Shown one piece after another: positions 1 to 57,699 of a stretch of 64,000 nt of DNA. The notes under the pieces were generated by a model. That model was given only the letters and a program-made list of their open reading frames with translations. It searched no databases and was not told where the DNA came from. A program made the position numbers and the translations under genes. The number at the start of each line of letters is the position of its first letter. The stretch's first letter is position 1. Origin of the DNA: Moniliella sp. 'wahieum' (Eukaryota); NCBI GenBank assembly GCA_003971905.1, contig RSEE01000167.1, forward strand, positions 1 through 64,000. The letters are read 5' to 3'.

Positions 1-3000
1 TCAAGTTAGGGCGGCACTGCCCACCAAGGCCAGGCGTCGCATCACAGTGAGAGTGGTAGGGGTGGATAGCTACAGCCTTGTATACTCAAACTAACTCACT
101 CCGTGGTTTCCAGTCAAAAGTGTCTCAACCCTGAATGGTGGGGGGGCATGCCCTTGAAGTATCAGGTCGTACCCCAGGTTCAACTCCACCTCGGTCCGTC
201 AATATTGGTCCGACCGGAATGAAACTACCAGGCCCTCTAGACCTCGGGAAGGACTAGAGGGCTGCACGAAACAGATCTGGAATAGGTCGAGGTTTGAGCC
301 CTGTAGGTCGAGTAGAGGGTGATGTCACCGGTCAGACTTCCCACGGACGGTACTCGGTCAGTATTGGTCCGATTGAGATCCGGACCGGTGCTATCGCTTC
401 TCCTGACCCAGCTCTACACATGAGGTACTTCGATTGGGTCCTGGGGTCGGCGTTGAAGGGTGATGTTCACTCAACGATATACGGTGACCGGTGATGTCTG
501 TCACCCACTTCTCTCCTATGACAGGTACCCGATTCCACCAGGTGATCATGGATCTGAATACTGTCAGCTCATCTCCTGGACTGGGACTACTGATGTGGGA
601 AGTGGGAGCTGGGGAGGCTGAGATCCAAGTTGGCATGGTCGCATCCATCCTGGGTCCTATGGGTGGGGTCAAGTTAGGGCGGCACTGCCCACCAAGGCCA
701 GGCGTCGCATCACAGTGAGAGTGGTAGGGGTGGATAGCTACAGCCTTGTACTACTCAAACTAACTCACTCCCGTGGTCTTCCAGTCAAAAGTTGTCTCAA
801 CCCTGAATGGGTGGGGTGGGCATGCCCTTGTAAGTATCAGGTCGTACCCCAGGTTCAACTCCACCTCGGTCCGTCAATATTGGTCCGACCGGAATGAAAC
901 TACCAGGCCCTCTAGACCTCGGGAAGGACTAGAGGCTGCACGAAACAGATCTGGAATAGGTCGAGGTTTGAGCCCTGTAGGTCGAGTAGAGGGTGATGTC
1001 ACCGGTCAGACTTCCCACGGACGGTACTCGGTCAGTATTGGTCCGATTGAGATCCGGACCGGTTGCTATCGCTTCTCCTGACCCAGCTCTACACACTGAG
1101 GTACTTCGATTGGGTCCTGGGGTCGGCGTTGAAGGGTGATGTTCACTCAACGATATACGGTGACCGGTGATGTCTGTCACCCACTTCTCTCCTATGACAG
1201 GTACCCGATCCACCAGGTGATCATGGATCTGAATACTGTCAGCTCATCTCCTGGACTGGGACTGATGTGGGAAGTGGGAGCTGGGGAGGCTGAGATCCCA
1301 AGTTGGCATGGTCGCATCCATCCTGGGTCCTATGGGTGGGGTCAAGTTAGGGCGGCACTGCCCACCAAGGCCAGGCGTCGCATCACAGTGAGAGTGGTAG
1401 GGGTGGATAGCTACAGCCTTGTACTACTCAACTAACTCATCCCGTGGTCTTCCAGTCAAAAGTTGTCTCAACCTGAATGGGTGGGGTGGGCATGCCCTTG
1501 TAAGTATCAGGTCGTACCCCAGGTTCAACTCCACTCGGTCCGTCAATATTGGTCCGACCGGAATGAAACTACCAGGCCCTCTAGACCTCGGGAAGGACTA
1601 GAGGCTGCACGAAACAGATCTGGAATAGGTCGAGGTTTGAGCCCTGTAGGTCGAGTAGAGGGTGATGTCACCGGTCAGACTTCCCACGGACGGTACTCGG
1701 TCAGTATTGGTCCGATTGAGATCCGGACCGGTGCTATCGCTTCTCCTGACCCAGCTCAACACTGAGGTACTTCGATTGGGTCCTGGGGTCGGCGTGAAGG
1801 GTGATGTTCACTCAACGATATACGGTGACCGGTGATGTCTGTCACCCACTTCTCTCCTATGACAGGTACCCGATTCCACCAGGTGATCATGGATCTGAAT
1901 ACTGTCAGCTCATCTCCTGGACTGGGACTACTGATGTGGGAAGTGGGAGCTGGGGAGGCTGAGATCCCAAGTTGGCATGGTCGCATCCATCCTGGGTCCT
2001 ATGGGTGGGGTCAAGTTAGGGCGGCACTGCCCACCAAGGCCAGGCGTCGCATCACAGTGAGAGTGGTAGGGGTGGATAGCTACAGCCTTGTACTACTCAA
2101 AACTAACTCACTCCCGTGGTCTTCCAGTCAAAAGTGTTCAACCCTGAATGGGTGGGGTGGGCATGCCCTTGTAAGTATCAGGTCGTACCCCAGGTTCAAC
2201 TCCACCTCGGTCCGTCAATATTGGTCCGACCGGAATGAAACTACCAGGCCCTCTAGACCTCGGGAAGGACTAGAGGCTGCACGAAACAGATCTGGAATAG
2301 GTCGAGGTTTGAGCCCTGTAGGTCGAGTAGAGGGTGATGTCACCGGTCAGACTTCCCACGGACGGTACTCGGTCAGTATTGGTCCGATTGAGATCCGGAC
2401 CGGTGCTATCGCTTCTCCTGACCCAGCTCTACACACTGAGGTACTTCGATTGGGTCCTGGGTCGGCGTTGAAGGGTGATGTTCACTCAACGATATACGGT
2501 GACCGGTGATGTCTGTCACCCACTTCTCTCCTATGACAGGTACCCGATTCCACCAGGTGATCATGGATCTGAATACTGTCAGCTATCTCCTGGACTGGGA
2601 CTACTGATGTGGGAAGTGGGAGCTGGGGAGGCTGAGATCCCAAGTTGGCATGGTCGCATCCATCCTGGGTCCTATGGGTGGGGTCAAGTTAGGGCGGCAC
2701 TGCCCACCAAGGCCAGGCGTCGCATCACAGTGAGAGTGGTAGGGGTGGATAGCTACAGCCTTGTACTACTCAAACTAACTCACTCCCGTGGTCTTCCAGT
2801 CAAAAGTTGTCTCAACCCTGAATGGGTGGGGTGGGCATGCCCTTGTAGTATCAGGTCGTACCCCAGGTTCAACTCCACCTCGGTCCGTCAATATTGGTCC
2901 GACCGGAATGAAACTACCAGGCCTCTAGACCTCGGGAAGGACTAGAGGCTGCACGAAACAGATCTGGAATAGGTCGAGGTTTGAGCCCTGTAGGTCGAGT

Positions 3001-4197
3001 AGAGGGTGATGTCACCGGTCAGACTTCCCACGGACGGTACTCGGTCAGTATTGGTCCGATTGAGATCCGGACCGGTGCTATCGCTTCTCCTGACCCAGCT
3101 CTACACACTGAGGTACTTCGATTGGGTCCTGGGGTCGGCGTTGAAGGGTGATGTTCACTCAACGATATACGGTGACCGGTGATGTCTGTCACCCACTTCT
3201 CTCCTATGACAGGTACCCGATTCCACCAGGTGATCATGGATCTGAATACTGTCAGCTCATCTCCTGGACTGGGACTACTGATGTGGGAAGTGGGAGAGCT
3301 GGGGAGGCTGAGATCCCAAGTTGGCATGGTCGCATCCATCCTGGGTCCTATGGGTGGGGTCAAGTTAGGGCGGCACTGCCCACCAAGGCCAGGCGTCGCA
3401 TCACAGTGAGAGTGGTAGGGGTGGATAGCTACAGCCTTGTACTACTCAAACTAACTCACTCCCGTGGTCTTCCAGTCAAAAGTTGTCTCAACCCTGAATG
3501 GGTGGGGTGGGCATGCCCTTGTAAGTATCAGGTCGTACCCAGGTTCAACTCCACCTCGGTCCGTCAATATTGGTCCGACCGGAATGAAACTACCAGGCCC
3601 TCTAGACCTCGGGAAGGACTAGAGGCTGACGGAAACAGATCTGGAATAGGTCGAGGTTTGAGCCCTGTAGGTCGAGTAGAGGGTGATGTCACCGGTCAGA
3701 CTTCCCACGGACGGTACTCGGTCAGTATTGGTCCGATTGAGATCCGGACCGGTGCTATCGCTTCTCCTGACCCAGCTCTACACACTGAGGTACTTCGATT
3801 GGGTCCTGGGGTCGGCGTTGAAGGGTGATGTTCACTCAACGATATACGGTGACCGGTGATGTCTGTCACCCACTTCTCTCCTATGACAGGTACCCGATTC
3901 CACCAGGTGATCATGGATCTGAATACTGTCAGCTCATCTCCTGGACTGGGACTACTGATGTGGGAAGTGGGAGCTGGGGAGGCTGAGATCCCAAGTTGGC
4001 ATGGTCGCATCCATCCTGGGTCCTAGGGGGGGTCAAGTTAGGGCGGCACTGCCCACCAAGGCCAGGCGTCGCATCACAGTGAGAGTGGTAGGGGTGGATA
4101 GCTACAGCCTTGTACTACTCAAACTAACTCACTCCCGTGGTCTTCCAGTCAAAAGTTGTCTCAACCCTGAATGGGTGGGGTGGGCATGCCCTTGTAA
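1..4197. repeat. Head-to-tail tandem array of a 676-bp unit (6 full copies plus about 165 bp, cut by the window start)
   Basis: The phase marker TCAAGTTAGGGCGG recurs at 1, 669, 1342, 2011, 2684, 3360 and 4033. The majority consensus counted by hand is 676 bp. Copies differ almost only by 1-3 nt indels. The array stops after CCCTTGTAA at 4197, where the consensus would continue GTATCAGG. Confidence 0.98.
3360..4032 (+). ncRNA. Candidate viroid-like / circular structured RNA monomer (one representative unit)
   Basis: Nested complementary segments in near-constant register: GGGTGG 3500-3505/CCATCC 4011-4016, CATGCC 3512-3517/GGCATG 3998-4003, CCAGG 3593-3597/CCTGG 3940-3944, CAGATC 3636-3641/GATCTG 3916-3921, GATGTCACCGGTCA 3685-3698/TGACCGGTGATGTC 3850-3863. 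Wobbles are G.U on the + strand. Transcription and circularity are inferred, not shown. Confidence 0.6.
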
Positions 4198-4203
4198 CCC
4201 TAA
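4195..4203 (+). repeat. Telomeric seed TAACCCTAA (1.5 x CCCTAA) at the array/unique junction
   Basis: CCCTTG|TAACCCTAA|GCCAACC. The C-rich strand is on +, the orientation of a left chromosome end. The first TAA is shared with the repeat unit. Only 9 nt, so chance is possible. Confidence 0.6.
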
Positions 4204-4823
4204 GCCAACCGACTTAGTGGTCTGAGAGCTGCAAGGTTCTGTAGCTCGAGTCATCTTTTCTTCTTTTTCCCTACTTGCGTATAAGTAGGACGACCCCTCG
4301 CGGGTATACAATGCTAGTCTTTACCACACCCACCCCCTTTGGCTTGCCTGGTAGACTCCGCTACTTTACAAGATCCATCACCTCCTCCCTCTCTCTCCTT
4401 TCTCCGTAGGCCTTTGTCCTCGCCTTGACACCCCTCCTGTGGTGTGGGTCCCCTCGGGACTCCCCCCTTGACATTCAGGCTGACGGAAGAGGTGACGGAA
4501 TCATGAAGGGCCAAAGAGTGCGAACAAACGAGATGAAGAGAGAGATTGGTCGGTATAAGCAACAGGACGGGCCATAAGTACCACAACCAATAGCCGTAGG
4601 TAGGGCTACTGGTCCACAGGAGGGATCAGACCAAAGGGAGCAGAACAGGTCCACCTTCCCAACACCCCCCTCAATCACGAGCGGGTGCCACTGCCATTGG
4701 TGGTCAGCGGTACACACCACCCACTAGAAGTGCCTGGTAACATTAGCACCTTCGCGCACACCTTCCCGTCTGGTGTCGGGGCAAATGGGGCTTGGCCGAT
4801 GGGGCTACTGTCATAGATGACCC

Positions 4824-7594
4824 CTACGTTCCAAGAGGATTGTAGTTGTTGTCGTCGAGTGCTGATGCACCAATTTTGTTAGCAACCTCGAAGTTGAATT
4901 CGAAATAACCCTGCCAGAGGACCATCACGATAAGGGAAGTGATAGATGTTCCGATTGAGAGCGCACCAGAGAGGGTATACTTCATTCTGATGTGCCATAC
5001 AAAGAGGGGAGGAAAAGTCAGTCTTATGACAACCGAGTAACCGAGACGGGTGGGGGCGAAAAACGTACGAAAGCCAGTAATTGCCCTGCCGTGCACGGCT
5101 AAAAAAGTAGGAAAAGAGCAAACCAAAAAAGATCCAGGATGTGTAGCTAATCGAATCGTGGAGGTCCAGTCGGAGATACACCCAAAAATCACCGGCACAA
5201 CGATCCAGGCTGGTTTGAAGCGGTAAAAAAGCATCGACCGCCAGCGCGATAGGGCATAGACAGGGAGAGGAAGCAAGGCGCCAATCAGAAACCCATACAA
5301 GGTCCAAGAGTACAGTTTCAGGAAACCAACGTATGGTCCCACTCCGCCCCAGTATTGTACATCATTCTGTATGCACCGAGTTAGACGCAGCATTGTTGCT
5401 TGACAAAGAGGAATAGATGTGTCCTGACCCGGAAGAAGCCAATTCTTGCTCTTTGCCTTGGTGAATCCAGAACCCAGCATGAACCAAGCTACAGGCAATC
5501 TGCACACCAACTTGGGTAAGAAAATTGACGCGCGGTGGAATCTTGAAGTAATGGCACAGCTTGGATCCGCCAGCAAAGAGCGCGGCTTGATGGATGATGT
5601 TGTTGGTGAATAGGCTGAACACAACGATACTGGTGGTGTTGTGCTCAAAAAGAAGTCCTGAGACGAGGCACGAAAAGTGGCGCAGGGAGACTTGGATCCC
5701 TGTGATGCCCTGGACCAGGCAGATCGGAACGAAAAAAACCAAGGACACAAGAAGAGCGACGAACAGGCCCCACACAGGGAATCCGGTGTGGTACACGTGT
5801 ACTGCAGGAATGCAAAGAGCGATGCACACCACGAATAGCCCAAGACTCCACCAAGTGGGTACCTGTTTATAGTTGGTGAGTATGGCACGGGTGTGGGGAT
5901 CGTACGCGCTAGCTGGCTTTAGCCGTAACCAGTGGCGAATATCCGCCCCGTGGAAAAGCCCGACATGCACCAACACGGACGACACTGCAATAAAGGAAAA
6001 GAAGATGGCCACAACACTCATGGCGGACAGGTAAGGAAACGAGTAGGAGTTGTACTCATCTAAATCAAACCGTAATGGTTCCTCTAAGGAAGTGTTGCCC
6101 ACGTTTAGGCCGAGATACAGGTAAGGCGACCCATGTAATCGGATGGCAACGCATTTGAGAAGGGAATTTGGGCCATGTGATGGGTATTGGTGCACATGAG
6201 AGCCACTCCGATTACACATCCTCCCAAAATGACCCAGCCAACACACACACAAGACATATGGTGGCACAATCAAGGGGGACAACCCCATTGCCGTCACAAC
6301 CTTGTACCAATCGAAGGTGATCATGTGGAGTCCCAGTCCGTTGCTGCCCCAAAAAGGAGGTTAATGGCAAAGAATGAATGGGTGCCATCCACGGTAAGAA
6401 GCTGAATGTTTGCATTGGCATGAAAAACACCCTCGGTACCCATTCCCATAGGGCGATGAGCACCAGCACGCACCAGAACACGGGTCGCATAGGCCAATGG
6501 GTGGCACGGATCCCATGCAGAGCAGTCAGGACAGACGATGTCTCCAGCTGCACGGGCCACACGAGCGGCTCAGGCCAGACCAGCACCTTGTGAGCCAGAT
6601 TGGCAAGGGGAAAGCCTAGAAGTGGTGCGGCAATGGTGAGAAGAAAGATGAACCCTGGCTTCCACAAATCCACCTGCAAAATAGCCTGGATGTTAAGAGA
6701 GTCAGATACCATAAACTTTGCGTTCACTAGAGCTGTGAGCATGAAGAGGGTCTGGTTGGGGCCAGTGGTGATGCCCGCAATGACGGTTAGCAACCTGTGA
6801 TAGTGTTAGCAGAGCTGCTTTAGAATAACAGAGAAATGAAGTGTGAGGGCGGCAGATGGTCCCAAACTTACGCATGCCTACAGTTGAACGGCCCGGGATT
6901 GAAGAAATGTTTGAAGGCCCAGTGGTCGGGGTACGGAATCATGGACATCAGTTTGCCCAACCCATATGCAAACGGCTGAATAAACACGGATCCTACCAGT
7001 GTTGAAGCATCGCCCGTAATAAAGACAACGTCCAACTCAAATACAAGATCGAGAGTCCGACGGTGATCAAGGATCCAATGAGCCACACACGTGCCGTGTT
7101 GATTGGTAAGGAAGGGTCGTCCTCGTTGGGGACTGTGGCGCGAACTTCAGGCAGGGAAGAGATGGCTTGGTTAAAATTGGCGTCGACCCCGTTATCGTCC
7201 CCATTTTCATCGTCGGACATGGAAGAGGTGAAGGTCGCACATGGCGATGTTTTCGCTTTGGAAGATACTGTCCTTGCCCATATACGTATCGTAGATAGAA
7301 CGGCGGTGATTCATGTCCAGGAGCGATCTACCGTCAGGATCTGTGGCGTCCGTGGCATCCTCCTGCCGTGGGCAAGCGAATATGCCCGGAAGTTAGTCGT
7401 GTTGAAGGATTCGGAACGGATGGAATCCTGGCGATCGGACGGGGGAGCCTCATCGCGCAGGCGAGGTTCAGTAATGGTTCCCGTCAATGGTTCTTGATCG
7501 AGGTCATCGGGATGGAGAGCCCCGACGGCGGGTTCGCCATGGACAATAACGATAATGGACCGGTGTCCTCGGCAGCGGTCTTGGTGCTCCACAT
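4824..7594 (-). CDS. OPT-family oligopeptide transporter (frameshifted in assembly)
   Basis: OPT hallmark SSLPEVRATVPNEDDPSLPINTARVW, then NPGPFN, LVWPVQL, TFDWY, YKQVPTWW, KLCHYFKIPPR, YWGGVGP, with many TM helices across the ORF pieces. Intron 6795-6871 (GTAAGT...CTAAC...CAG on -). Start codon uncertain (7594 or 7220). Confidence 0.9.
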
Positions 7595-20610: not shown

Positions 20611-22653
20611 CTTCTGCGACTGGGCTCCGGCGCATCTCGGTCGCATCGCTAGCTCATCGCTATTGGCTCGTCACGCGTCACGGTGACGCGTCGCGAGCAC
20701 GTGTTGGCCACTGTCACACGTCACATGTCACACGTCACATGTCACATGTCAACGCCTCTCGTCACGCGTCACGCGTCCCGAGTCACGCATGATGAATGGC
20801 TTCATTCATCATCCATTTGTGTCATGCATCCACAGCCACTGTGTCTAGCCCCACTGTGTGGAAGGTTGAAGCTTGAAGGGAGGACTCCTGCCACAGTGCT
20901 CCTCTGCCCCGGGTGCGCTGCAACTCTGAATCAGAGATCTGACACAGGCTCGGCCACCAGAGGTGTTTTGTTGATTTTGTGTGTGGCGTGTGTTGACAAC
21001 CCCAACACAATGATCCAGCCGTGTGGCATGTGCGTCCCCACAGGTTCCCACTCAGCGTCAGGCCTCACGCGGTTATGATATATGAGCATCGAGATCATCA
21101 GCCTTCAGCTCATCGATCATACATCCCTTGTTCTCACGTATAGGATGATCCATGTCTAACTTCAACACCTGTTCTTCCGACGCCCGAAGCTTAAAGCTTA
21201 AAGCTTGAAGCTTGAAGATCCTCAGGCCTCACCACTGTTCCATGGATACGCCTGCCTCCATTCCAATCTAACCTGCACAGCGCTCGCGGCCATTGTTACG
21301 GGGAGTGCATGGCGAACGCTACTGAGATCTGAGAAGTGAGACCATAGAGTACGGTTTGGAGGACGGAGGATTGCTGGTTTAGGAGGGTGGACCGCGAATG
21401 AACTGGGAGCGTCATCGATCATCGTACTGATGAGTGGTGTGTACTCGCAACATATGTTGAAGCTCGAAGCTTGAGCTTGAACGTTGAACGTTGAACGCGA
21501 ACGCAGATCGCCGTCACAGCCTCGCTCCCCCCCCCCTCCCCAAACAAGACACGCCCCGCTGTCTTATTGATTGGCCTTTTGTGCACCCCGCCCCCGATGG
21601 CAATGTCGACCCGTCCATCGCGACTGCGCCGATCGGGGCGCCAACAGCTCGATATTTCCGGTGGCCACCAGCAGCGTTCGCCAACAGGCGGCCTAGGTGG
21701 GTGCGGAGAAGCAAGGGAAAGGCAAGGCAAGGCGAGGCCGGCGCCAGACCTGCCAGCTCAGTGGTCACATGGCTCCCACCCAGCACCCAGTACATACGCC
21801 CCAGCTGTTCCATCTTGCTGGGGGCGCTGGTGACACACGGGAGGCCCCGCATTGAGAAGAGAGGGAGTGGCGTACAGTGTGCGTACCCTGAGTCGTGAGT
21901 AACTGTGAGTGTTCAAGTTGAACGGTGAACGTTGAGTACCGTGTATACTGAGTACTGAGGGAGTATGAGTATACTGCGTGTACCGACTACAATTCAATAC
22001 AGAGTCGCATTACTGAGACAGAGGACCGAAGCTGGCTGGGTGGCACCCGCACGGGTGTGTGTGTTCCAGTGTGTGTACCGCGGTAGCCAGCAGGCGGGGG
22101 GGGCACTGGGCGGGCGCGGCGTTGGCAAGCACGGGGCGCAGGCAACACGCTGTGCACGAACCACAGCGCATCATGCATCGAGGCCGTCACGCCTGCGCTG
22201 CCCCGCCACCCGTCACACACCCGACGAGCTCAGACATGCGGGACGATGACGCTCGGGTCGATTATAGAGCCACGCTAGGGGGGTGGATGGGAGCAGAGGG
22301 AGCAGACAGCGGAGGCGACTCGGCTCGAAGGGCGACAATGCGATGGCAGCAGCCCCGCGACGGACGCGGCGACGTGTTTTGGCGTGCTGGGGCCACTGGG
22401 ATCCCATCCATCCCATCCATCCTACCCCTTTCCCAGCGCAGCCTCCCACGCCACACGCACCCGCTCTTTTGCTACCCCCAACCGCCGTCGCTGTGGCGGC
22501 CATGCATCCCACGCCCTGGCTGCCCTCTGCCCCCACCGCCTCCCCATCCGACCCACAGCGCCGCCGCTGCCCGCCCGGCCCAGCCGCCCTCGCTCCCTCA
22601 CGCTCAGTGCCAGCGCCCTCCACAAGCGCCGCCGCACCCACGCGTCGCTCAAC

Positions 22654-22782: not shown

Positions 22783-25740
22783 CAGCAGCACAGCAGCAGC
22801 AGCAGCAGCATCCCCCGCCACCCCCAGCCCTCCCCGCCACAAGCAACGACCCTCCCCAACACCAGTCGCGTCCCCCACTTTCTTTTCGCCGCCACAACCG
22901 GATCCGCATCAGACCGATCCAACAACCTCCCGTACTCGTCCGCGCGCCCCTCGCTGACAAGGGCGCCGCTACCAAGAACACCGACGTCTGGCCCGATGAC
23001 GTTGAAGTTGCATTTTGGGAAGGTGAGTGGCGCTGCCTGATGGAGCTTCTCGCATCAATCGCCAATTCCCTCTTTCGTTCTGGGTGGCTGACCACGGAGA
23101 TTATGCATCCTCCCCCTCTCTGCCGTGATCACAGCGCTTCGCTTTATCCCCAAGCTCGGGCGACGCAAAGTATGGTCCATGGCAAGGCGTGTGGCCGGAA
23201 CGAACTGATTGCGGACTACATCCATCGCAAGACGGGCAAACAGCGCTCGCGCAAGCAAGTGTCCAGCCACATTCAAGTCCTGAAAAATGTCCGCAAGGAC
23301 GATGCCGAGTTTTCTTCACCTCATAGCCGAGCCACGTTGTGAAGACGACTTTTACGTGCCTGCAGGTGGGATGATGTACGCCCTTTGCTCGCCAGCTCTG
23401 GCTACGGTGGCCTAAGTGGTCCCTATGGTGTGCCTGGATGGGAGATGGCGGCCGAAACGGTTGTCGAGGGCAACATCAATCGTCTTACCGACCCTACGCT
23501 TACCGCTCCTCCCCCGGCGGACAACATGCCGTCCGTGCTGCCATCCAGCTTTTCAATGTGGGCGCACTGCAGCGACAGTGAAGAGCGGCATGTGTACGTG
23601 ACGATGGATACTGCACTGCACCCTGTACCAGTGTAATTGACGGAGCAAAGCTATCGATACGGTACATTTGGGCCAAGTACGATTCCCCCACTTGTTCCGC
23701 ATGTTTGATCAAATTCCCTGCCCGTTTTTCACATTTATGCCCCACTTCGCGTTCCCCACGCCGACGTCTTTCTTTCCCGACTTTGACCAGTTTAGCACCC
23801 TCACCCTCACCAGCTGCGATGCCCACCGCCTCACCTCAGTCCACCGTCTTCTCGCACGGAAAAACGCATCCTGTCCCCATTGAGCCCCTGGATGCGCCCC
23901 AAGTCGCGGCTGCCTCCCCCAGACAACGGAGGACGTGACGACCAATGCAGCGCCTCGCTACTCGTATATGCACTACGCTCCCTTTGCCACGGACTTTTGG
24001 GCAGACTTGCTGAGTCGCAGTCATCCATCCACTTTCCCAAGACGAACGATTCCCCAACGTTTGGCAAGGAGCCGAGCGAACGCGCGGCGCTGGCCATGGC
24101 CGTCGCAGGCATCTCGCTCATCCAAGAATTTGTCGTGACCGACGAAACCATTCCTGCCCAGTCGTACAAGGGGGGCGAAGGCGACGACGAACTTCTGTCC
24201 CCCGGACAACAAGTGGGCGAAGTGCACCTGGTTTATCGTGGGATTGGAGTGCGTGGAACCCACGTCGCCTCCTGCGTCGTGCGCACCAGCCAAGCCGCGC
24301 ATCTCACTTCTCACTTCGGCCGCGCGCGGCGTGCCAGCGAGCCGGACCGGTCCCGCCACCCAACGGAGCAGATGACCAGCGCGTTGCCTCTCGGCCCGCG
24401 TAGGGTGACCTATCCGCACCCCACCGTCGTGCCCCCTCCTCTCTTTGCTCCCTTCTTCCGCAGCGCAAGAACAGGCACAGCTGCCGCTGCGTCTTCGCGC
24501 TCTTCTTCTTCCCAACGCACTGATGCTCAACTTGCCCATGTCCAACTTGCCCAGTTTGCCCAGTATGCCCAGTTTGCCTAGTCTGCCCAGCCTGGCCACC
24601 TTGGACGGCCACACCACACTGCACATGCCAGCTTCGTCCAGTGCACCGGACCGCCTTCCCCTGCCTGCTGTCAACGTTACTGGCGACGTTGACGGTCTGG
24701 GCCAGGGCCAAGACACCCGCCCACTGCGCATGGGCTCTCGGTACCGCAGCCGGGCATAACAACTTGGTTCCCCCAGTGTCGGATGCGACGCTGCGGGTCC
24801 GTCGCACCCTCCATTTGCAAGCCATGCCCACGCTGCTGCGCAAGCGTACCTTGTCCAATGCGACGCGTGAGTACCCACCGCCAAACCTACCCCGCCCGTC
24901 TGTCCATTCTGCCGCGTTCGATGGAGCCCATGGGTGCGGGGAAGGAGGACGGCAGGGCATGGGCATGGGCATGGGGACGAGTATGGATACGAGTATGGGC
25001 GCGGGCGCGGGGATGGGGACGGGGATGGGTGCGGGCATGGGGATTGGGATGGACATGGACATGGGTACGACAAGTGGGACATGGCATGGCTCTTGGCACA
25101 CCGCAATCGTCAGCCTGAGTTGGCCTGGGTCAGCAGGCACGGGAACGGGGACCTACCCCGACAGCAGCGTACCGAAGGAATCTGGTCCTTTCGTTCCGAG
25201 CCGGCTATTCCGTCGCCGCTCGATGCCAGTTGCCCACTACGCCCATTCCCGTCCTGCACACCCGCGTGACGAGACCAATCCGCCGCTGCGTCTGTCGCGC
25301 GCCATGTCGGACTACCACTCGGGCCGAACCACGGCTACCAAGGCTACCACGGCCAGCAAGGCCACCACAGCCACCAAACCCACCAAGCTCACCACTGCGC
25401 GTCTTCTTCGCCCTTCTCTGCCACGCCGTTGGGGTCGCCTTCGATGCTGGACGGCCGACCGCCTCCTGCGGATCCCGGCACGGCAGTACGCCTACCGCCA
25501 GCGACGGCGGCTATGCCCACCAGTCAGCCCAGTTCTACCCTCACGGACAGCTTGCGCAACTTTAGTTTCCACTCGACGCCGATGCCGACCGTCGCGTTAC
25601 CCGACGAAGCACCCATGGCGATCCGAAGAGCGTCGATCCTGACCCACTCCCCGGTTCCCATGCCCGCAGGTGCAGAGAGGCCCCAAGGTGAACAGGAGAC
25701 CGAGGAGTTGTCGTATCATCGTCGCACCCGACCGTTCCAA
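22654..25740 (+). CDS. TEA/ATTS-domain transcription factor (Tec1/AbaA-like)
   Basis: [13 protein letters not shown], intron 23023-23134 (GTGAGT...CAG), then [11 protein letters not shown]...[35 protein letters not shown]. Poly-Q/S N-terminus. C-terminal end uncertain. Confidence 0.9.
22744..22809 (+). repeat. (CAG)n tract within the TEA gene
   Basis: Interrupted CAG run of about 20 units. Confidence 0.9.
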
Positions 25741-25857
25741 CCGTTCCAACCGTTCCAACCGTTCCAACCGTTCCAACCGTTCCAACCGTTCCAACCGTTC
25801 CAACCGTTCCAACCGTTCCAACCGGTTCGACCGGCTCGACCGGCTCGACCGTTCCCG
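25732..25857 (+). repeat. 9-bp minisatellite (CCGTTCCAA)x10 followed by diverged CCGG(T/C)TCGA units
   Basis: Ten perfect copies at 25732-25821, then 3-4 variant units. Confidence 0.95.
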
Positions 25858-34003: not shown

Positions 34004-35269
34004 GAGGATGCGGGACCAACACGCGGAGCAGGACCACGTACACGAACATCGCGTGGGTGGGCGCACGCGTACCCCCCCCCCCCCCCGTTCGGGGTGCCGG
34101 GCGCCGGCGTCTTGCTCCGTCTGTCTGGGGGGGTGTCTTTTGTATTTGTACAGCCTCTTGCTCTGGTGTTGGAGAATCAACTTGCCCCCCCCCGACCATT
34201 TTGCCTTTACCCTTTCCCCTTTCCCCTTTCCCCTTTCCCCTTTTCCTTTCCCTTTGCCTTTCCCTTTTCCCTTTCCCATGTGGATCCACGGCCTTTCCCC
34301 ATCACATATTCATACCTCCCATGTACCCCACCCTTCCCCCCCCACCCTCCACACCTCCAACTTGTTCGCCCGCTTTCATCTGCATCGCACCCGCCGCTTG
34401 GCACCGATATCTATTCTCGAATCTCCTTTCGTTGCATTGTGCTTGTTTGGGCGCTGAGGCAGTGCCTCTCGTAGCTCCCAATCTACGGTTCCAACGTGCC
34501 CAACCACAGTGGGTGGTGTACCCGGGCGGTACGTGGCACGGGCTGGACAGTGCATGTGAACGATCGTACGAAGGGAGGCAGAAGACAAGGCAGAAGCGTG
34601 GTAGGGCTCCAGGGCTCCAGGGTTAAATACAAAGTGCTTGTACGTCGTAGTAGTACAGTGCGGAGCTACTAGCCTTCAGGACAAGAACGTACGCTTCCGT
34701 TGCTCAAAATGGTTGTTTGCGGATGAAGATGACCCCAAAACTAACAGCTTCAGTCCCACCGTGCAACGATGACTAGATGACTACCGACTTGGACGATTCC
34801 TAGGACCCGGCGTGTATCTGGCTATAGTACTCCTATTCCTCGTCCTACTACCACTACTACTATTATTACTGCTGTGTCGGTCCCTCCACTTGTTCCACGC
34901 CCAATCACAGTCAAGTCACAACCAAATCCCAATCCCAATTCCAATCCGACGCTGCCGCACTGGCACGGCTGTAGAGCGTCGAAACCAGCGCCGGTCTTCT
35001 TGTCTCCACCCCCGGGCCGCGAGCGATCCATACCGGACCGTACGGGCCCAGGTGCCGGCGAAGACAAGCGTGCACGTTACACTGGTACATAAGGGTACAC
35101 GGTAGGAGGGTAGGAAGGGTACGAGGGTAGGAGGGCACGAGGGTATGGATATCGAGATGGATCGGGAGACAGGGAGGGAGATACGATGAAGGAACGAAAC
35201 AAGGGCACGGTGGACACGACATGCGGTAGTGCTGCTGGGCAAAGAACGGTGTGTGTGAAGACGGGGCAG

Positions 35270-43230: not shown

Positions 43231-43326
43231 GATGGTGATGGCGATGGTGATGGTGATGGTGATGGTGATGGTGATGGTGATGGTGATGGTGATGGTGATG
43301 GTGATGGTGATGGTGATGGTGATGGC
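43231..43326 (+). repeat. (GATGGT)n hexamer microsatellite
   Basis: About 16 units immediately after the ABC transporter stop codon. Confidence 0.95.
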
Positions 43327-43508: not shown

Positions 43509-46500
43509 ATGCCCGCGCCGCGACCTGACCGCAACGACGGCCGCCGTCGCCGACGACCGCCACGACGACCGCGGCGCTCCTGGCGGTGCCGACGACGACG
43601 ACCCGCTGCTCGACGGCGCACATGGCCTGCACATCGTCCACTCCTATGCCCAGTCCATCGCCGATGCCGACCGCTCCGAGCGGCGCCACACCGCCAGCCT
43701 GCCGCCGCCGCCAGCGCAGCACCCAGCTCTTCCACCGCATCGCTGCCTCCTTCCGCGCCGCGCCCTCCCACCGCCCACACCACCGCTCCTCCCTCCACGA
43801 CCCCGACCTCCCCGCCCCGACCCCGACGGCGACGGTGCTGACGGTGCGATGCCGCGCCGCTCCTCGGCCCGAGCGCGGGCCGCCGCCGGGGCCGGCCAGC
43901 ACCCGGGCCCAGCCCGCGTGGAAACGGCTCTTCCAGCGCACCCGAAACCTTGACGCGCCGCCGCGTGTACATGAACATCCCCCTGCCGCCTCGGAACTGG
44001 ACCGGTTCGGCGAGCCCAAGGCGGTGTATGCGCGCAACAAGGTGCGCACCACCAAGTACACTGCCTTGTCCTTCCTGCCCAAGTTCCTCTTTGAGCAGTT
44101 CCGTCGTATCGCCAACGTTTTTTTCCTCCTGCTCATTTTCTCCAGATCCGCGTCGAGTTTACCGCTGGCAACTCTATCCCCCAGGTCGCCATGCTACCGC
44201 TCGTTTATCCTCGGCATTACCGCCGTCAAGGACGGCATTGAGGATTCTCGTCGGCACGTACAGGATAAGGGGGTGAACAATGCACCTACCTTGTGTTTGG
44301 GACATGGCTGGCGTAACGTCAATACCCCCACGATACACGTAGTGCATTTCGCCGTCTGTTCCGCCTCCCGGGTGCGGGTTCGGGTGCGGGCGCCGGCGCC
44401 GGCACCAGCAGGACCCCGTCGCGGAGGGTACGCAAGCTTCGTGCTGCCCATGCCGAAGACGACTTGATTGCGATGGAACGTCTGGCTCCCGCGGTGGAGC
44501 AGGACGTGGAGTCGATGCAGGACGCCGGCACCACACTGTACGATGGGTCTACAGCCTACACATCTTCCCAGTCATTTACCAGTCTGCCCATGCTGGGCGA
44601 ATCAACGAGTGCCGCGACCGGCTCGTCCAGCTCAGCTGGCTTGCGCCGCAAAGCCGATGTCGTGGACGAGACGCGCACGGTCTCGGGCACAGTGCGGTGG
44701 GAACATACCATGTGGAAGAAAGTCGAGGTGGGGGACGTGCTGCTGCTACAAGAAAACGACGAGCGGTTGGGTACCAGCGGACGTGGTGATTCTAGCAACC
44801 TCCGACCCAGATGGTCAGGCTTACGTCGAAACTAAAAACCTGGATGGAGAAACTAACCTCAAGCCGCGCCAGGCTCTCAAGGCAACCCAAAACATCCGCT
44901 CGGAATCCGACTTGCAACAGGCCATGTTTGTTGTCGATGCCGAGGCGCCCCAGGCCAACCTGTACAGTTTCAATGGTGTGCTCGAGTTTACTCCTGCTCC
45001 GTCTTCTCGCCCAAATACAACCTCAAACACAACAACACAAACACAAAACAACAAATGAGACGGCCGATTCCGATACCTTTTCCCTGGCCGCGGCGGGTGC
45101 GACCGAGGTGGGCGACGCGAGCATCGAGCCCGTAACGATCAACGAGTTGATGTTACGTGGGTGCACGTTGCGCAACACGAGTTGGGCCGTGGGCCTGGTC
45201 TTGTTTACTGGAAACGACACGAAGATTATGCTCAACTCGGGCGAGACGCCATCGAAGCGGTCCAAGATCGAGAAGGAGACAACTTTAATGTGGGCTTTAA
45301 CTTTGTCTTGCTGTTTGTCATGTGCTTTGTGTGTGCGCTGGTGGGGGGCATCAATTCAGGCCGAACCAACGACTCAAGGGCGGTGTATGAGCGCAATTCC
45401 CTCTACGGCTCTAGCCCCGCTGCCAATGGAGCCATCCTTTTTGCGTACGTTGTCTCCCCCCCCCCCTCTATCCTGCCAGGCCAGCAAGTCTGGTCTGTCT
45501 GCTCTGTGCCCCGCTCACGGATTAAACATCTGGTTTTGCTCGTAGCGCCACCATCATTGTCTTTCAAAATATCGTTCCCATCTCTCTACATCTCGATCGA
45601 AATCGTCAAGACGATCCAAGCGTTTTTTATCCACCGCGATCGCGAAATGTATACGAGCCACTGGATTACCCCTGCATGCCCAAATCATGGAACATTGCCG
45701 ACGATCTGGGCCAGATCGAGTACATCTTTTCCGACAAGACGGGTACCCTGACGCAAAATGTAATGGAGTTCAAAAAATGTTCGATCGCAGGAACCACCTA
45801 CGGGTCGGGCATGACCGAGGCCATGCTCGGCGCCCTTCGGCGCCAGGGCAAAGTCGTTACGGACGTCGAGTGAGTTGGCTGAGCAGGACAGACATCTCGA
45901 GGAAGAAAAGCAAGCTATGCTCCAACGACTGGAAGGTACCTGTCCAATCCGTATTTGCAGCCGGACCACTTGACCATCGTTAGCCTCCCGCTCGCCACGA
46001 CGCTCGGTGCGTCTGCCCCTGCGAGTGCTCAACAGGCGCAGCAGCGCGACGCGGCAATTGGCTTTTTTCGCGCGCTCGCGCTCTGTCACACGGCACTCGT
46101 CGCCACCACGAGGGAAGGAACGGTGGACTACAAGGCCGAGTCGCCGGATGAGGAAGCGCTCGTCTCGGCTGCGCGAGACTTGGGGTTCGCGTTTGTCAAG
46201 CGCACTCACCATTTGCTCGAGGTCAACTGTTGGGCCAGAGGGAGAGGTACGAGCCGCTGCACGTGCTGGGGTTTACCTCGACGCGCAAACGGATGAGCGT
46301 GATTGTGCGCGAGACGCAGACGGGTCGGATTTTGCTGCTGAGCAAAGGTGATTCGGTCATGTACCAACGCTTGGCTCGCGACCACGATCGTGTATTGAAA
46401 GCCCAGACGAGCAAGGACTTGGAAACGTTCGCCAATGCGGGCTTGCGGACGCTGTGTGGCGTACAGTACGTGTCGGAGGGGAGGAAGCGTATGGCGCATG

Positions 46501-49001
46501 GGCCGAGGCTCATGCGGCAGCAGTGCATCCCTCACCGAGCGGGACGAACGAGTGGACGCCTCGGCAGACCAGATGGAACAGGATCTGTACCTATTGGGGC
46601 TACAGTCTGGAAGTAAGTTGCAACAAGGTGTGCCCGATGCGATTGCCAGTTGCGCCGCGCAGGCATCAAGATTTGGATCTTGACGGGCGACAAGCTCCAG
46701 ACAGCTATCGAGATTGGATTTAGCTGTAACCTCTTGTCGACCGACATGGACATCTTGATCCTCTCTGCCGATACGGCGGCGACGCGAAGCGCAGTGGTCG
46801 CTGCGTGCGACAAGCTCTCGCTGCCGGTCGAACCGATTGTTGTTGACGGTACCCCGCGCCCGATGCGGGCTAAGGAGACATTCCGTGCCGTAGTCTCTGC
46901 CGCGGGATGGGTTTGCCGTCGTGATCGATGGCGAGACGCTCAAGGGGCGTTGCGGGCGGAGCAAAACCGCTCTTCTTGGCGCTGACGACGCAGTGCGAGG
47001 CGGTGGTCTGTTGCCGCGTCTCGCCAGCGCAGAAGGCTGACGTGGTCGGCTGGTCAAACAAGGCTGTGGATCCATGACGCTCGCCATTGGTGATGGCGCC
47101 AACGATGTGGCGATGATCCAGGAAGCCCATTGCGGTGTCGGATCGCAGGTAAGGAAGGTGCCCAAGCCGCCATGTCGGCCGACTATGCTATTGGACAGTT
47201 CCGATTCCTGGTGCGCTTGCTCTTAGTCCATGGACATTGGTCCGTGGTTCGGATTGCACGCATGCACTGTGTATTTTTCTTCAAGAACATCATTTGGACC
47301 TTGTGTCTGGCGTGGTATCAGCTTATGGTGTGCGTATCTTTCCCTTCTCCATTTCTTTCTCCTTCTCCCCCCACCCCTTCATCTCCTCTCCTCTTTTCCT
47401 CTTCTCTCGCTGGGCGGGACAGGGCGATTGACCAAATATGTGGATAATGGACATGGCACAGCGAGTTCGACGGCACCTACCTTGTTCCCTACCCCTTCAT
47501 CTTGCTCTTCAACTTGGTCTTTACCAGTTTGCCCAGCATCCTTCTCGGTGCGCTGGACCAGGATGTGAACGCGGCGGCGCTCATGGCGGTGCCCGAGACC
47601 TACTTCAAAGGTCGGCAGGGCAAGTACTACACCCGCCCCATCTTCTTCGGCTACATTATCGATGGCATTTACCAGTCGGTCGTCTGCTTCTTTCTGCCGT
47701 GGGCCATGTGGGGCAAGTACCCCGCTACCAACGCCGATGGCCACGATATGATGTCGCTCTATCTGTTTGGTACCTCGGTCGCTGGGGCGGCGGTGACGTG
47801 CGCCAACCTGGCCGCGGCGGCCATCAGCAGTTACTGGACCTGGCTCTTTTGGGTAATTGAAGTCCTGTCGATCTTTGCGTTTTTTATCTTCTCAGCCATC
47901 TACTCGGCGTTCAACTCGTTCATCTTTGACGATGTCGCGTACTACCTGTACGCCTCGGTCCTGTTCTGGGTCACGCTGGCCATGACGGTGGTACTGGCGA
48001 TGCTGCCGCGGGTATGCTTTTTGGCGTGGCGCAGTAGCTTTTACCCGGACGACTGTACGATCGTGCGGGAACAGTGGGTTGTCGGTGACCTCAAGGACCG
48101 TCTCGGCCTGGGGCATCGCCACCCTCGTCGCGCTGAAAAACGAAGGGATAAAGCGACGGCCAAGCAAATCGCCTCCTTAGGTTTCACCCAGAGTTGGAGG
48201 CACAAGCTACAAGCACTACCAAGCTCGCAGCGCGCGCTGGCTTCCACCGCTCCACACCTTCCTTCGCCGAGTCGATCAGCGGATACCGTGCCTCGAACCC
48301 TGTGCGCCCCGACCTCGATCTCGACCCGGACGAGGCGAGTGTCTGGGCAGCTCCGGTAGACGAGTACGACGTTGGTGAGGCCATCGGACGCTCGTCACCC
48401 ACCAAGACGGCTGTGAAGCTCGACAAGGACACGGCACTACCCCAGGACGTTCCTCCCGGCCAAAAGGCAAGCGCGGGGATGGACATTCGCTTGGTCGACC
48501 TCGACAACGACCTCAATCTCGACAACGACCTCAATCTCGACAACGACACCCCGACTTCGACGTCGCGCCTGCCGTCCCGCCCCTCGTCCGCTCGCCCTCA
48601 CCCTCACCCTCGCCGTCGTCGGTCTATGGCCCATCCCATCCTTCTTCCCATCCCCGCCCACCCCCGCAGAGAGAAGAGTCTGGCCGATTTGTCGGAGCCG
48701 AGCGTGCGCTCTCGCTCTTGCCCCCCGCCCTGGGCTCTGCTCCCTTGCCCGCGGGGTCATCCTTGACGCCGCTGCCCCGCCTCCGTCCAATAGCACAGTC
48801 AGCTCCACCTACTCCGTTGCCTCTCCTTCCACAGCCGCGCCGCCTCCGCCCTGGGCATTCGATCGGTCCACGTACGATGAACCTGCGCGGCTGGACCCGT
48901 GGGCCGAGCTGGGCGCATCGGACGACGTGCTATCTTCCTTGGCGCCCACCATGTCCTCTCACCCTCTCCCTTTTCCGCGACCCCACTCTCCCGCCTCCTA
49001 A
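43509..49001 (+). CDS. P4-ATPase phospholipid flippase (Dnf1/Dnf2-like)
   Basis: [143 protein letters not shown]-terminal end approximate. Confidence 0.96.
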
Positions 49002-50255
49002 CTCCCTGATCCCCGCGGCCCACTTATCCACCCACTATCCATCCTCTATTCATCCTCCTAATCCTTACCCAGGCGGACGACGACCCCCTCCATCCCGCCT
49101 CTCCCCCAGCGCCTTGACCTCTCTTACCTTTTACGTTTTTCTCCCGCCATGTTTCTCCTGTTTCTCTTCTATTTTCCCCTTTTCTTCTCTTTTCCCTTCT
49201 CCCACCCAGGATCAGGCACCGCGCCAAGCGCACAAGGACGCTCTCTTCCCCCACTTTGCCCTCTCTTCCGCACCCTCTTATATCTTCCGGGACGGCTGGC
49301 CTGCTTCGGCTGAACGTCCACCGCTTCGTTGTCGGGTTGGTGTTGGCACCCGTGTGTGTCGGGCGCACGCACTACCTGTTTTGATCTATGGTCTATTGAT
49401 GTATGATATCCCATCTGTGCCGGGGCTAGACGTCCTCAGGATTTGCGTGGGGTGTGTGGCGGCGGCGGAACTGGGTATGGGTGCTGCGAATGCGTACTGG
49501 GCCGGCGGGCGTGTCGGCGGCCTCCGGACCGTCGGAGGTGAGCGGGCCGAGGGGACGCGCTACTGACTCGGTCGGTGGAAAAGAAGGAACGGGAAAGGGG
49601 CGACGAGTGTGACGTTCAAGTCACTCACTGGTGAGTAGTCACTAGTCACTTGTCACTCGTGACGTGGCGCACCTGAGACGGAGGACTCCACCTGAGCGTC
49701 TGAGCTGAGCTAAGCGTGCGGGTGGAGGGGCGCGGGATGGTTTGAGACGCCACGGAGGGATGAGCTGGGGGGGCGTAGAATGCCTGATCGTTTCTGGCGC
49801 CCCCGTTTCGGCGGTCGGCGATTCCTGCGTGCTGCTGCTGCGCGCCACAAGTGCCCTGCGTGGCGGGGGGGCAGTCACTAGTCACTAGTCACTAGTCTCG
49901 CCTTAGACCGGTGGCGTCGCCGGAGCGATCCCGACCAACAACCCTCGTTTGCGTGTCTACGGCCTGAGGAGGGGAGACGTGGTGGGCTCGGTTGTGCTGC
50001 GGTTGCTCCCCGGTTGCTCCTGCCATCTCGTATCCACACGCCTCCATCACATCCCAGTCACCTCATCCCCAGTGGCCACCCCTCCAGCATCACCCCCATC
50101 ACGCCCCCTGCCTGCTCCCCGCCTACTTCTACCTGCCCTTGGTGTTACCTCTGCTGTCCTCGCCTCTGCCTTCTCGCCACCATCCCCTGCCTTCTCCCCA
50201 CCATCCCCTGCCTTCTCCCACCATCTCCCCACCCTCCCTCAATCGCACGCCCCCC

Positions 50256-52531: not shown

Positions 52532-53691
52532 TGCACGATGCACGATGCTGGGTCTGAGTGCGAGCGTGCGTGCAGCGCCACCAAGAAGGGGAGGAGGAAG
52601 GGAGGGGGAAGATCCAGCAGAGAAAGAACGCTTGGTGCTGTTTGCGTGGCTGCTGGCTGTTGGCTGCTAGCTGCTGGCTGTTCGGTTGCGGAGTATTCGC
52701 TGTGTTTTGTCTTGTTTCGGTTTGTTTGTTTCGGTTTGTTTTGATTTGGTTGTTCCCGTTGTGGGCGCGGGCGGGAGGGTGTCGGGTCTCGGGTCTCAGT
52801 GGGGGGGAGGCTCGTTTGGCCTGTACATGCTCTCTCGTACGGGTTTGTCACGGTCGGTTTGTATTGTCATCGATCTCATCCACGCATTGTATTCATCCCT
52901 CCATCCATCCACCCATTCACCCATTCATCCATTCATCCCTCCATCCATCCATCCATCCATTCATCATCCATATCCAGTCGTCTTTGAACCCAACATGCTT
53001 TCTCGTCCTTTTGTCGTTGACGTATTTCCTTGAACTCTCCATAATCATGGTCGGACATGTGGACTTTTGTCACAGGACATGTAGATGGTTGTGTCGTGCC
53101 TGAGGCCCTGCCTGCACACCGGGCGCTGGGACTACTGAGTAATGATGTTAATGACGGGAGCAGAACTTTTCGTTGTTCGTGTTGTCCGTTCCACTTTCTA
53201 GTTTAATGGTTTCTCCCCGTTTTCTGGTCAACTGCAACCGAGCGTGGGTCCTCTGTCCTGGCTATAATCCGTGCCACGCGACTTTGCCACCTCTCATCGA
53301 CCTGCAGCTTCACTCTGTACGACTCGATTGCCACCTCTCATCAATCTTCTCAGTGCGCTCGCCTTGAGCTTCGATGGCCAGACGATATTATAGCTCGTCG
53401 AACGCATTGCCAATGGGAAACGCACTGGGGATTATCGATTAGGGTTACGCTTTCTGGTCGGTGCAATGGGGCGGAGTAAACTTTCACTTCTCCACGGTAT
53501 ATGGGGTAGTACTTGGTGCGTATCCAGTGTGGGTTTAATGATGTCGTCCACGCTCCGCCGCTTTATTGGCGCCAACGCCCTGGCGCCGACTTTGTTCGTC
53601 GTAGCCGTCTGGGTCGTCTTTGCCGTCATCGCCGCTGTCGTTGTGCCCGTTTTATCGGTGCGTCGCCATCGTTGCACCCTCCCCCCCGCCC

Positions 53692-55933: not shown

Positions 55934-57699
55934 GGGTTTTTTTGTGGTTTCGGGTGTCCCTCTCAACTCTCGCAACAACAGTATCTATCCCCTTTTGAAT
56001 ATACCGGCGGTATAGTACCGTTTTGTTGTGCCACGTTGTGTCTCTCTTTCCTCCCGCTTCCCGTCGTTACTGGTTACCGGTTGACATCCTTCTCGAGCGG
56101 CTGCTCGTCACATAACCGGCATGGGTCACACTTATTGCTGTATTGCCTGCTCGGCCGCACCTCGATCCTGGATGCTGGATGCTGGATGTTAAATTCTGAA
56201 TACTGGATGCTGGATCCTGCGTGATCTGCCGCTCCATCAGTGCTTAGTGGCACTGCAGGTCGGCCGTTTCCAACTCTCGTCCAACTGGATGGAAAACATT
56301 ATGTGCGGCACGAGTGGTTTGGGACCACGCGGAAAAGACAGTGGATACTAGTAGTCCCCTTTGGGTCGGCACGCCGAACCAGTAGTCGCTAGACCGCAGA
56401 CGATCAGCGAGTATGTAATCAAGTCCGAGGCGAGTGACAAGAAGGGGAAGGCGGAAGGGGGAAGGAGGTGATGGCGAACGAGGACAGAACACGCCGGCAA
56501 CTTTCGCATCTAGCTTCAAATCTACCAATCAGGCATGGCACCGGTGGGCGAAGTGGCAACAACCTAGTGAGTAGGTCCAAGAGGAGCTCACGGAGCGGCA
56601 CCTGCATGGAAATGGTGCGAGCGGGCGACCCAATTGCCAACTCTCGGATCCATCCGTACTCTCCTTTCAGATGGACGAAGCGAGCAGCCTAGCTCGCATG
56701 TGCAGTAGACAGAACGAATGACCCAGGCGAATGGGAGTTAATTCATGTCTCACCAGGGCTGGTACTACATCCTTCCCGATCGATGGCTATTATCCTCTTG
56801 CCTTTCTCTCCCCATCGACCTTCCATCTGCCTGCCGCAGATCTATCCGCATCGAACGCATGGAACACATCGGGCTATGTAGCACGACCAACGTAGCCTGG
56901 CTCGGGACAGAGAAGTGGGGCGGGGCACAGCCAGGTAAATGGTAAATACAAGAATGTGCAAGATCGGCGGGCCCAAAGATCGCGGGACGCCCGCTGGTCG
57001 CAACGGGAAAAAGGCGCAGCAATTCAAGCACGGTAACGAACGGGAAGTAAAAAAAAAGGTACAGACGCCATGGCTCTGGTGGGCCCAACCACCAAACAAA
57101 CACACACACCACAACCACATACACTTCCAACGTACAAGCGTACAAGGTAGCAAGCGTAGCAAGCGTATTAAGAGAAATAGTGGGGTGGGGGCCGCCATGA
57201 CCAGAGCGCACGAATGAAAATAGTGAAGAGACCCAAATGGGATAGATGGGATCAAGAATGGTCGCAAGTCGCAAGTGGCAAGTGACAAGTGGGAAGTGGG
57301 AAGTAAGAAGTGGGAAGTGGGCAACCGGAAAGCAGGAGCGATGGGTGGTCCAAAGAGCGAGAGAAGAGGAGAGGTAGAAATCGAGTTGGACAAACGCGTG
57401 ACATGCGTCGTTCGTCGTTCGTCGGTCCCAGTTCACACGGAAGGAATGTAAGGCAACGAAGCACGGCGCACTTGCCGTTCGGCACGGCGTCGTGCAGTCA
57501 ACGCCAATGCCGCAGCGTTGGGGTTGGGGTTGGGGTTGGCGTTGGAATTAGCGTCGGTGGGCCCAGCGACGGAATCGAGTGGTGGCACGGCCGAACCGAG
57601 TGGAGCAGCGCGAAACAGGTGGGGATCCCGTTACCGTCTTGCATTCGTTACCGTTGGCTGAAGATGCGACGGCAAGAGAAGGTGGGGTGGGGGAGACTT

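Follow-up and report, generated by a model that had tools for sequence, protein, structure and literature searches.

A nine-nucleotide telomere vestige at the edge of a 676-bp satellite array: a candidate repaired chromosome end in a basidiomycete fungus

In a 64,000-nucleotide stretch of fungal DNA (positions 1 to 64,000 of contig RSEE01000167.1, assembly GCA_003971905.1, Moniliella sp. 'wahieum'; the whole stretch is referred to below as the window), a tandem array of a non-coding 676-bp satellite unit occupies positions 1 to 4197 and meets unique, gene-bearing DNA at nine nucleotides of telomere repeat. The reading that we favour, and to which we give about an even chance, is that this locus is a chromosome end that lost all but a stump of its telomere by erosion, the stump having afterwards been extended with, or joined to, a pre-existing satellite by DNA-level events that used a 3-nt microhomology. 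A first-pass annotation of the same DNA had instead proposed that a reverse transcriptase, primed by the telomere, copied a circular RNA over and over onto the end. The telomere-linked part of that proposal survives: a short, natively oriented telomeric tract adjoins the array on its proximal side and overlaps it by 3 nt, which fits the extension or joining of a nearly lost telomere; the RNA template and the enzyme, as set out below, found no support.

Read outward, the locus consists of unique gene-bearing DNA to 4204, 9 nt of telomere repeat in native orientation, a 3-nt TAA overlap, and then the homogeneous 676-bp satellite. The vestige TAACCCTAA (4195 to 4203, plus strand) comprises 1.5 C-strand repeats, and its minus strand, TTAGGGTTA, points outward into the array; the C-strand on the plus strand is the orientation expected of a left chromosome end. 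The join reads ...GGGCATGCCCTTG-TAA-CCCTAA-GCCAACCGACTT... on the plus strand and GGTTGGC-TTAGGGTTA-CAAGGGCATG on the minus strand, the latter exactly as given in the first-pass annotation. On the plus strand the array ends in ...GGGCATGCCCTTGTAA, followed by CCCTAAGCCAACCGACTT, and the equivalent place inside the units is CCCTTGTAAGTATC; there the site runs CCCTTG-TAA-GTATC, with the TAA at 3522 to 3524, for example. Because TAA is present both in the unit (positions 164 to 166) and in the telomeric tract, the trinucleotide at 4195 to 4197 is assignable to either partner, and the 3-nt microhomology that had been claimed is thus indeed there. The unit contains TAA only twice, at positions 94 and 164, and the second of these is the one used. 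A single telomere repeat had also been claimed at the join: the tract is confirmed, its length is not, being 9 nt or 1.5 repeats, and given the indel errors in both the array and the unique DNA the stump length could itself be off by a base or two.

The vestige is the only C-strand-type telomere 9-mer in the window, in which CCCTAA occurs only at 4198 and 62137 (neither inside the units) and no run of two or more telomere repeats was found. Telomere-type 9-mers of either strand number two (at 4195 and 53439), against 2.6 expected from composition; they are therefore not rare here, and the significance of the vestige lies in its position only. The chance of meeting a telomere 9-mer in the right orientation is ~2e-5 per position and ~2e-4 for one that touches the array boundary, and an overlap of at least 3 nt at a random join has P = 0.05. 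The second telomere-type 9-mer, TTAGGGTTA at 53439 to 53447, has the G-strand orientation, lies far from any repeat boundary and is consistent with chance.

The array itself (GC 0.55) runs off the start of the window and is made up of six units and a 166-bp partial unit that adjoins the junction. Unit starts, placed by a recurring anchor, fall at 668, 1341, 2010, 2683, 3359 and 4032, with a spacing of 669 to 676 bp; the first unit covers 1 to 667 and is short of one base at the window edge. When compared with a consensus of 676 bp (GC 0.55) built from an alignment of the six units and the last partial unit, the full units are 98.5 to 99.4% identical to it and the partial unit (4032 to 4197) is 100% identical (blastn). 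Variable columns make up 48 of the 681 in the alignment, nearly all of them a 1-bp gap in a single copy, and the differences from the consensus (27 deletions, 5 insertions and 14 substitutions) are distributed from the window edge to the junction as 16, 5, 8, 7, 4, 6 and 0 per unit. As each variant is confined to one copy, the units are in effect identical, and the variation has the look of long-read assembly consensus errors, not of diverged repeats. Such high unit identity fits either recent amplification or continuing homogenisation. Open frames of 226 to 227 aa occur in the raw array and vanish in the consensus, where the longest are 108 to 136 aa, which marks the former as products of indel errors; none of 20 open reading frames (ORFs) of at least 45 aa across two units reached the cut-off in a Pfam scan.

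No telomere tracts were found between units anywhere in the array, no C-strand telomere motif inside the units, and no sub-repeats within the unit other than short weak pairs of at most 19 nt. When the consensus was compared with the window by blastn, the only matches outside 1 to 4197 were short chance ones; the unit is thus an import and was not amplified from the neighbouring subtelomere. Relatives of the unit were also sought with exact 24-mer and 20-mer scans, which detect exact words only and retrieved 0 metagenome contigs and 0 viral contigs; a second metagenome 20-mer gave a single locus (L001), which aligns over those 20 nt only and was rejected as a chance match. A Helitron-type rolling-circle array and a long terminal repeat (LTR) or TRIM tandem array were likewise set aside, as no diagnostic ends were seen on inspection by eye.

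Two further features recur in every unit. Each carries one plus-strand TTAGGG (GTCAAGTTAGGGCGG), at 6, 674, 1347, 2016, 2689, 3365 and 4038, in the orientation opposite to that of the junction tract; about 0.3 per unit would be expected by chance, so that it may mean nothing. Each unit also has a perfect 10-nt palindrome, GGGCATGCCC, read directly from the sequence, and in the last copy it lies at 4182 to 4191, 3 nt before the join. A G-run block, GGGTGGGGTGGG, leads into this palindrome, the two together spanning 4173 to 4191 and the equivalent place in each unit. It is possible that the palindrome and G-run are a fork-stalling or break site of the satellite.

The events that we envisage would begin with erosion of the TTAGGG tract of this end to a stump. 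The 3' end of the stump (...TTAGGGTTA) could then have been extended by DNA-templated copying, either when replication, break-induced or microhomology-mediated, entered an array of the satellite that was already present at another end, or through rolling-circle copying of an extrachromosomal DNA circle of the satellite; alternatively, microhomology-mediated end joining could have attached it to a broken or extrachromosomal array. In either case the array would now form a subterminal or terminal block that is capped further out by ordinary repeats, or would itself be an end maintained by recombination in the manner of alternative lengthening of telomeres (ALT). The anatomy is read directly; we infer that the telomere eroded, that the array is terminal, which enzyme acted and what was copied (another array or a DNA circle). 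In favour of a repaired end we count the anatomy and polarity of the junction, the boundary coincidence of ~2e-4 and the overlap probability of 0.05, together with an imported unit in near-identical copies, ordinary neighbouring genes without mobile-element genes, and no sign of an RNA agent. The larger number of differences toward position 1 is only suggestive of a terminal array.

Fungal precedents in Pyricularia, Naumovozyma castellii and the Microstromatales match this junction anatomy. In TERT knockouts of Pyricularia oryzae, all sequenced repaired ends are described as having kept a small telomere vestige and as being joined to other subterminal DNA by replication-based repair, microhomology-mediated break-induced replication (MMBIR) or non-homologous end joining (NHEJ) (PMC8381367). 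In some wild Pyricularia strains, according to the same account, internal telomere tracts bound subtelomeric tandem arrays (PMC8381367). As in the Pyricularia repairs, whether in TERT knockouts or after spontaneous failure, the host here is a fungus and a vestige, TAACCCTAA, sits in native orientation between unique and added DNA. The Pyricularia units (MoTeRs or a 4-kb repeat) are, however, described as having telomere tracts between them and RT-related (reverse transcriptase-related) sequence, whereas the 676-bp units have no such tracts and no coding signal, and the present host is a basidiomycete known from sequence alone. In telomerase-negative N. castellii, a 9-bp internal telomeric tract is reported as the start point of tandem TelKO addition on eroded telomeres, for which copying from another end or from a circle was proposed (PMC6778800). 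Here, too, a 9-nt telomeric tract stands where the tandem array starts; in contrast to the TelKO unit, described as local telomere-adjacent DNA (~220 bp) plus ~50 bp of telomere, the present unit is unrelated to the adjacent DNA and is without telomere tracts.

The Microstromatales, an order of Exobasidiomycetes, provide a further comparison. All their chromosome ends are reported to be arrays of 1.6 to 21.6 kb built from motifs of 41 to 178 bp and sensitive to BAL-31, with DNA circles and TERRA-like RNA, and a recombination-based mechanism was proposed; TERT (Est2), Tpp1 and TTAGGG are all described as missing, whereas the other Exobasidiomycetes examined in that study keep canonical TTAGGG repeats (PMC13234504). 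The present fungus apparently belongs to the same class and has a kilobase-scale array of a complex motif that is not of the G-rich type, its position at an end being our deduction. With respect to the published ranges (PMC13234504), the 676-bp unit falls outside 41 to 178 bp, and the array, at least 4.2 kb long, falls within 1.6 to 21.6 kb. Unlike the ends of the Microstromatales, for which we met no mention of a boundary remnant in PMC13234504, this locus has kept a telomere stump. The nearest named relatives of the window's proteins come from Tilletiaria and Tilletia, not from Jaminaea or Pseudomicrostroma, which places the lineage apparently outside the Microstromatales. Literature searches turned up no report of an array of this kind in fungi resembling Tilletiaria or Tilletia.

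In HAATI in fission yeast, generic repeat blocks can take the place of telomeres, a mechanism described in PMC13234504. Roll-and-spread from DNA circles in Kluyveromyces lactis and Y' amplification in type I survivors of yeast are further relevant routes, as cited in PMC6778800 and PMC13234504. Our reconstruction would share with these three the lengthening of a short telomere through recombination or a rolling circle that adds long tandem DNA, and the use of repeat blocks as a telomere replacement. It differs from them, as far as those accounts go, in that they concern laboratory telomerase mutants, whose circles and Y' elements carry telomeric repeats, whereas the present locus has been met only as assembled DNA.

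Several observations weigh against a repaired end. There is a single junction, and it comes from a noisy assembly. An overlap of 3 nt is weak and cannot discriminate between polymerases. Had the array been inserted the other way round, the plus-strand TTAGGG of the unit could have paired over 6 nt, yet this longer match was left unused; the join was thus not simply driven by the best homology, which fits end joining, a donor array that always points outward, or a template that was single-stranded and of one polarity. Finally, the best-studied amplifications, the TelKO and MoTeR arrays, are described as having a telomeric tract in each unit, whereas the units here are without one in matching orientation.

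Of the explanations that compete with repair of an eroded end, the most probable, though still unlikely, is the internalisation of a former telomere. A deprotected end would in this case have fused by end joining, through the same 3-nt microhomology, to a break in a large satellite block elsewhere (for example a pericentromeric or heterochromatic one), so that the array would not lie at an end and the contig would simply break inside it. The junction predicted is identical to ours, long satellites often break assemblies, and telomere internalisation has been described in Pyricularia (PMC8381367); yet an end that fuses with the body of a second chromosome may create a dicentric, we found no positive evidence of an internal array, and the contrast between 16 differences in the outermost unit and 0 to 6 near the junction fits thinning read support at a sequence end, even if repeats alone could cause the rise. 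We regard it as improbable that the junction arose in the library or the assembly, by a chimeric long read or a mis-join that tied a natural chromosome end to satellite from elsewhere. Natural DNA ends can ligate to other fragments in library preparation, and the assembly is noisy, with 32 indels in the 4.2-kb array and frame changes over gaps of 0 to 7 nt in a flippase gene. A ligation chimera at a natural end should, however, keep a full-length telomere tract and not 9 nt of it, random chimeras would not be expected to overlap by precisely 3 nt with the orientation correct, and units at ~99% identity to the consensus are better than a single raw noisy read. It is very improbable indeed that TAACCCTAA arose by chance where an ordinary internal satellite stops, and has nothing to do with telomeres. 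The chance-level number of telomere-type 9-mers in the window (2 against 2.6) would allow for it, as would the fact that the organism's telomere repeat was not directly observed; it would nonetheless have to accommodate the ~2e-4 probability of a boundary 9-mer in the right orientation, and genes that start about 620 bp away, as they would at a compact chromosome end.

The remaining explanation is that of the first-pass annotation in its broadest form, to which we attach a low probability. A reverse transcriptase would have taken the TTA-3' of an almost vanished telomere as its primer and would have repeatedly copied a circular or multimeric plus-strand RNA of the unit, the array being the resulting cDNA; the enzyme could be a telomerase that switched template, an RT of the Penelope-like element (PLE) type or a non-LTR RT that targets telomeres as Cnl1/MoTeR elements do, perhaps acting in trans. 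As a variant of the same explanation, included in this low probability, the unit would be a non-autonomous retroelement whose natural 3' end is ...CCCTTGTAA. The polarity is as such a process requires, since the plus strand would correspond to the RNA and its 3' end would lie at the stump, and the longer TTAGGG of opposite polarity is left unused, as expected if one strand only served as template. The TAA at the junction, a trinucleotide that the unit has at just two sites, is predicted to be unpaired in the circular fold of the plus strand (P unpaired 0.81 to 0.97). This last point bears out the earlier placing of the TAA in a loop of an RNA rod as far as pairing goes; the fold on which it depends is itself unsupported, being no better than those of shuffled sequences, so that the unpaired TAA carries little weight. 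In addition, non-LTR retrozymes are thought to spread as tandem arrays via circular RNA (10.64898/2026.07.22.740005). DNA-level repair after telomere failure, however, gives the same junction and the same polarity, and fungal examples of it have been documented (PMC8381367; PMC6778800).

The tests that the sequence allows give the RNA model no support. A search of positions 1 to 6000 against Rfam (cmscan, E up to 10) gave 0 matches, and a tRNA search with ARAGORN found none. The hammerhead core motif, CTGANGA, is missing from both strands of the consensus. Hammerheads are, by contrast, described as part of endonuclease-deficient PLEs and of retrozymes (PMC8557442). Circular folds were compared with 60 dinucleotide shuffles per strand: the minimum free energy is -247.0 kcal/mol for the plus strand (shuffles -250.5 +/- 7.7, z +0.45) and -223.1 for the minus strand (shuffles -223.8 +/- 6.9, z +0.10). 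The unit therefore has no structure beyond that due to its composition, and the shuffles match the advantage of the plus strand over the minus strand. Beside the 0/20 Pfam result for the unit, a Pfam scan of the 122 ORFs of at least 170 aa over 4200 to 64000, that is, the adjoining 60 kb, retrieved no reverse transcriptase, telomerase (TERT), PLE, helicase or transposase, and, unlike the arrays described for Athena, Coprina and MoTeR, the present one has no telomeric tracts between its units. A circular RNA template and a reverse transcriptase are thus left unsupported.

A comparison with the element families that such an enzyme might represent leads to the same result. Athena and Coprina, which are endonuclease-deficient PLEs, are reported to attach to telomeric 3' ends with the C-strand as their sense strand (PMC8557442). 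The locus resembles these elements in the attachment to a telomeric 3' end with C-strand sense, and it resembles retrozymes in its tandem arrangement, as both groups are described (PMC8557442; 10.64898/2026.07.22.740005). The RT ORF, the hammerhead ribozymes and the reverse-complement telomeric repeats reported for Athena and Coprina (PMC8557442) are, however, all missing from the unit, as is the hammerhead ribozyme described for retrozymes. Unlike a viroid-like or rod-shaped circular RNA, the unit has a fold no more stable than that of shuffled sequence, and, unlike non-LTR retrotransposons of the MoTeR/Cnl1 type, it has no ORF match and no telomere-like repeats between tandem copies. The PLE, retrozyme, viroid-like and MoTeR families, the defining features of which were sought and are absent, thus do not include the unit, and the locus would seem, by analogy, to work like the known repairs of telomere failure.

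Inward of the vestige, a unique spacer (4204 to 4826) with no similarity to the array unit (blastn) leads to the genes, which begin about 620 bp from the stump. The first, beside the former end, encodes an OPT oligopeptide transporter (4827 to 6805, minus strand; PF03169 at 5365 to 6360 with E = 2.2e-39 and at 6215 to 6805 with E = 1.2e-11); it lies in pieces across frames, owing to introns and/or indel errors, and a search for it among longer proteins gave no match. Further along are genes for a Yta7/ATAD2-like AAA ATPase, an acid phosphatase, a TEA/ATTS factor, a Sec7/PH protein, a PDR-type ABC transporter, a P4-ATPase and a sugar transporter. A protein search with the AAA ORF gave generic Yta7/ATAD2-like matches only. 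The C-terminus of the P4-ATPase, a flippase, has Tilletiaria anomala (48% identity) and Tilletia species (44 to 45%) as its nearest named relatives, and unnamed matches reach 72 to 76%. An alignment of the flippase gene (43991 to 48269, plus strand) with its Tilletiaria counterpart places frame changes at 44763->44771 (a 7-nt gap) and at 47142 (0 nt), and since gaps of 0 to 7 nt are too short for introns, these are apparent assembly indel errors, unless the gene is decaying. The OPT, AAA and ABC genes are likewise split across frames.

Tandem Repeats Finder also detected a number of short arrays with a 7-bp period, at 20713 to 20777 (GTCACAC), 34204 to 34277 (CCTTTCC), 49873 to 49897 (AGTCACT), 52647 to 52680 (TGGCTGC), 56164 to 56219 (GATGCTG) and 57264 to 57321 (GCAAGTG). 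Two microsatellites that are perfect or near-perfect and of in-frame length, one of a 9-bp motif, ACCGTTCCA, at 25731 to 25824 (10.4 copies, 100% identity) and the other of the 6-bp GATGGT at 43231 to 43325 (15.8 copies), probably encode peptide repeats in genes.

What the locus means depends on which of these readings holds. An artefact or an internalised telomere would reduce it to an ordinary feature of a subtelomere or satellite. If reverse transcription were to prove true after all, it would represent a giant-repeat cap in a fungus that otherwise uses TTAGGG, and would suggest an RNA-templated origin for the long-motif telomeres of related yeasts. Provided that the join is real, the locus captures, as it happened in nature, the gain of a long-repeat block by a chromosome end without its telomere, with the 9-nt stump and the point of entry into the repeat still readable. 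Long-motif, telomerase-independent ends were reported in 2026 for one order of Exobasidiomycetes, and the ancestral repeats there are described as completely erased (PMC13234504). A junction that has kept its stump, in a fungus apparently outside the Microstromatales, would give a direct handle on the seeding step, namely on the use of microhomology and on whether a circle or an array served as template, and it would suggest that long-motif chromosome ends are more widespread than has been thought.

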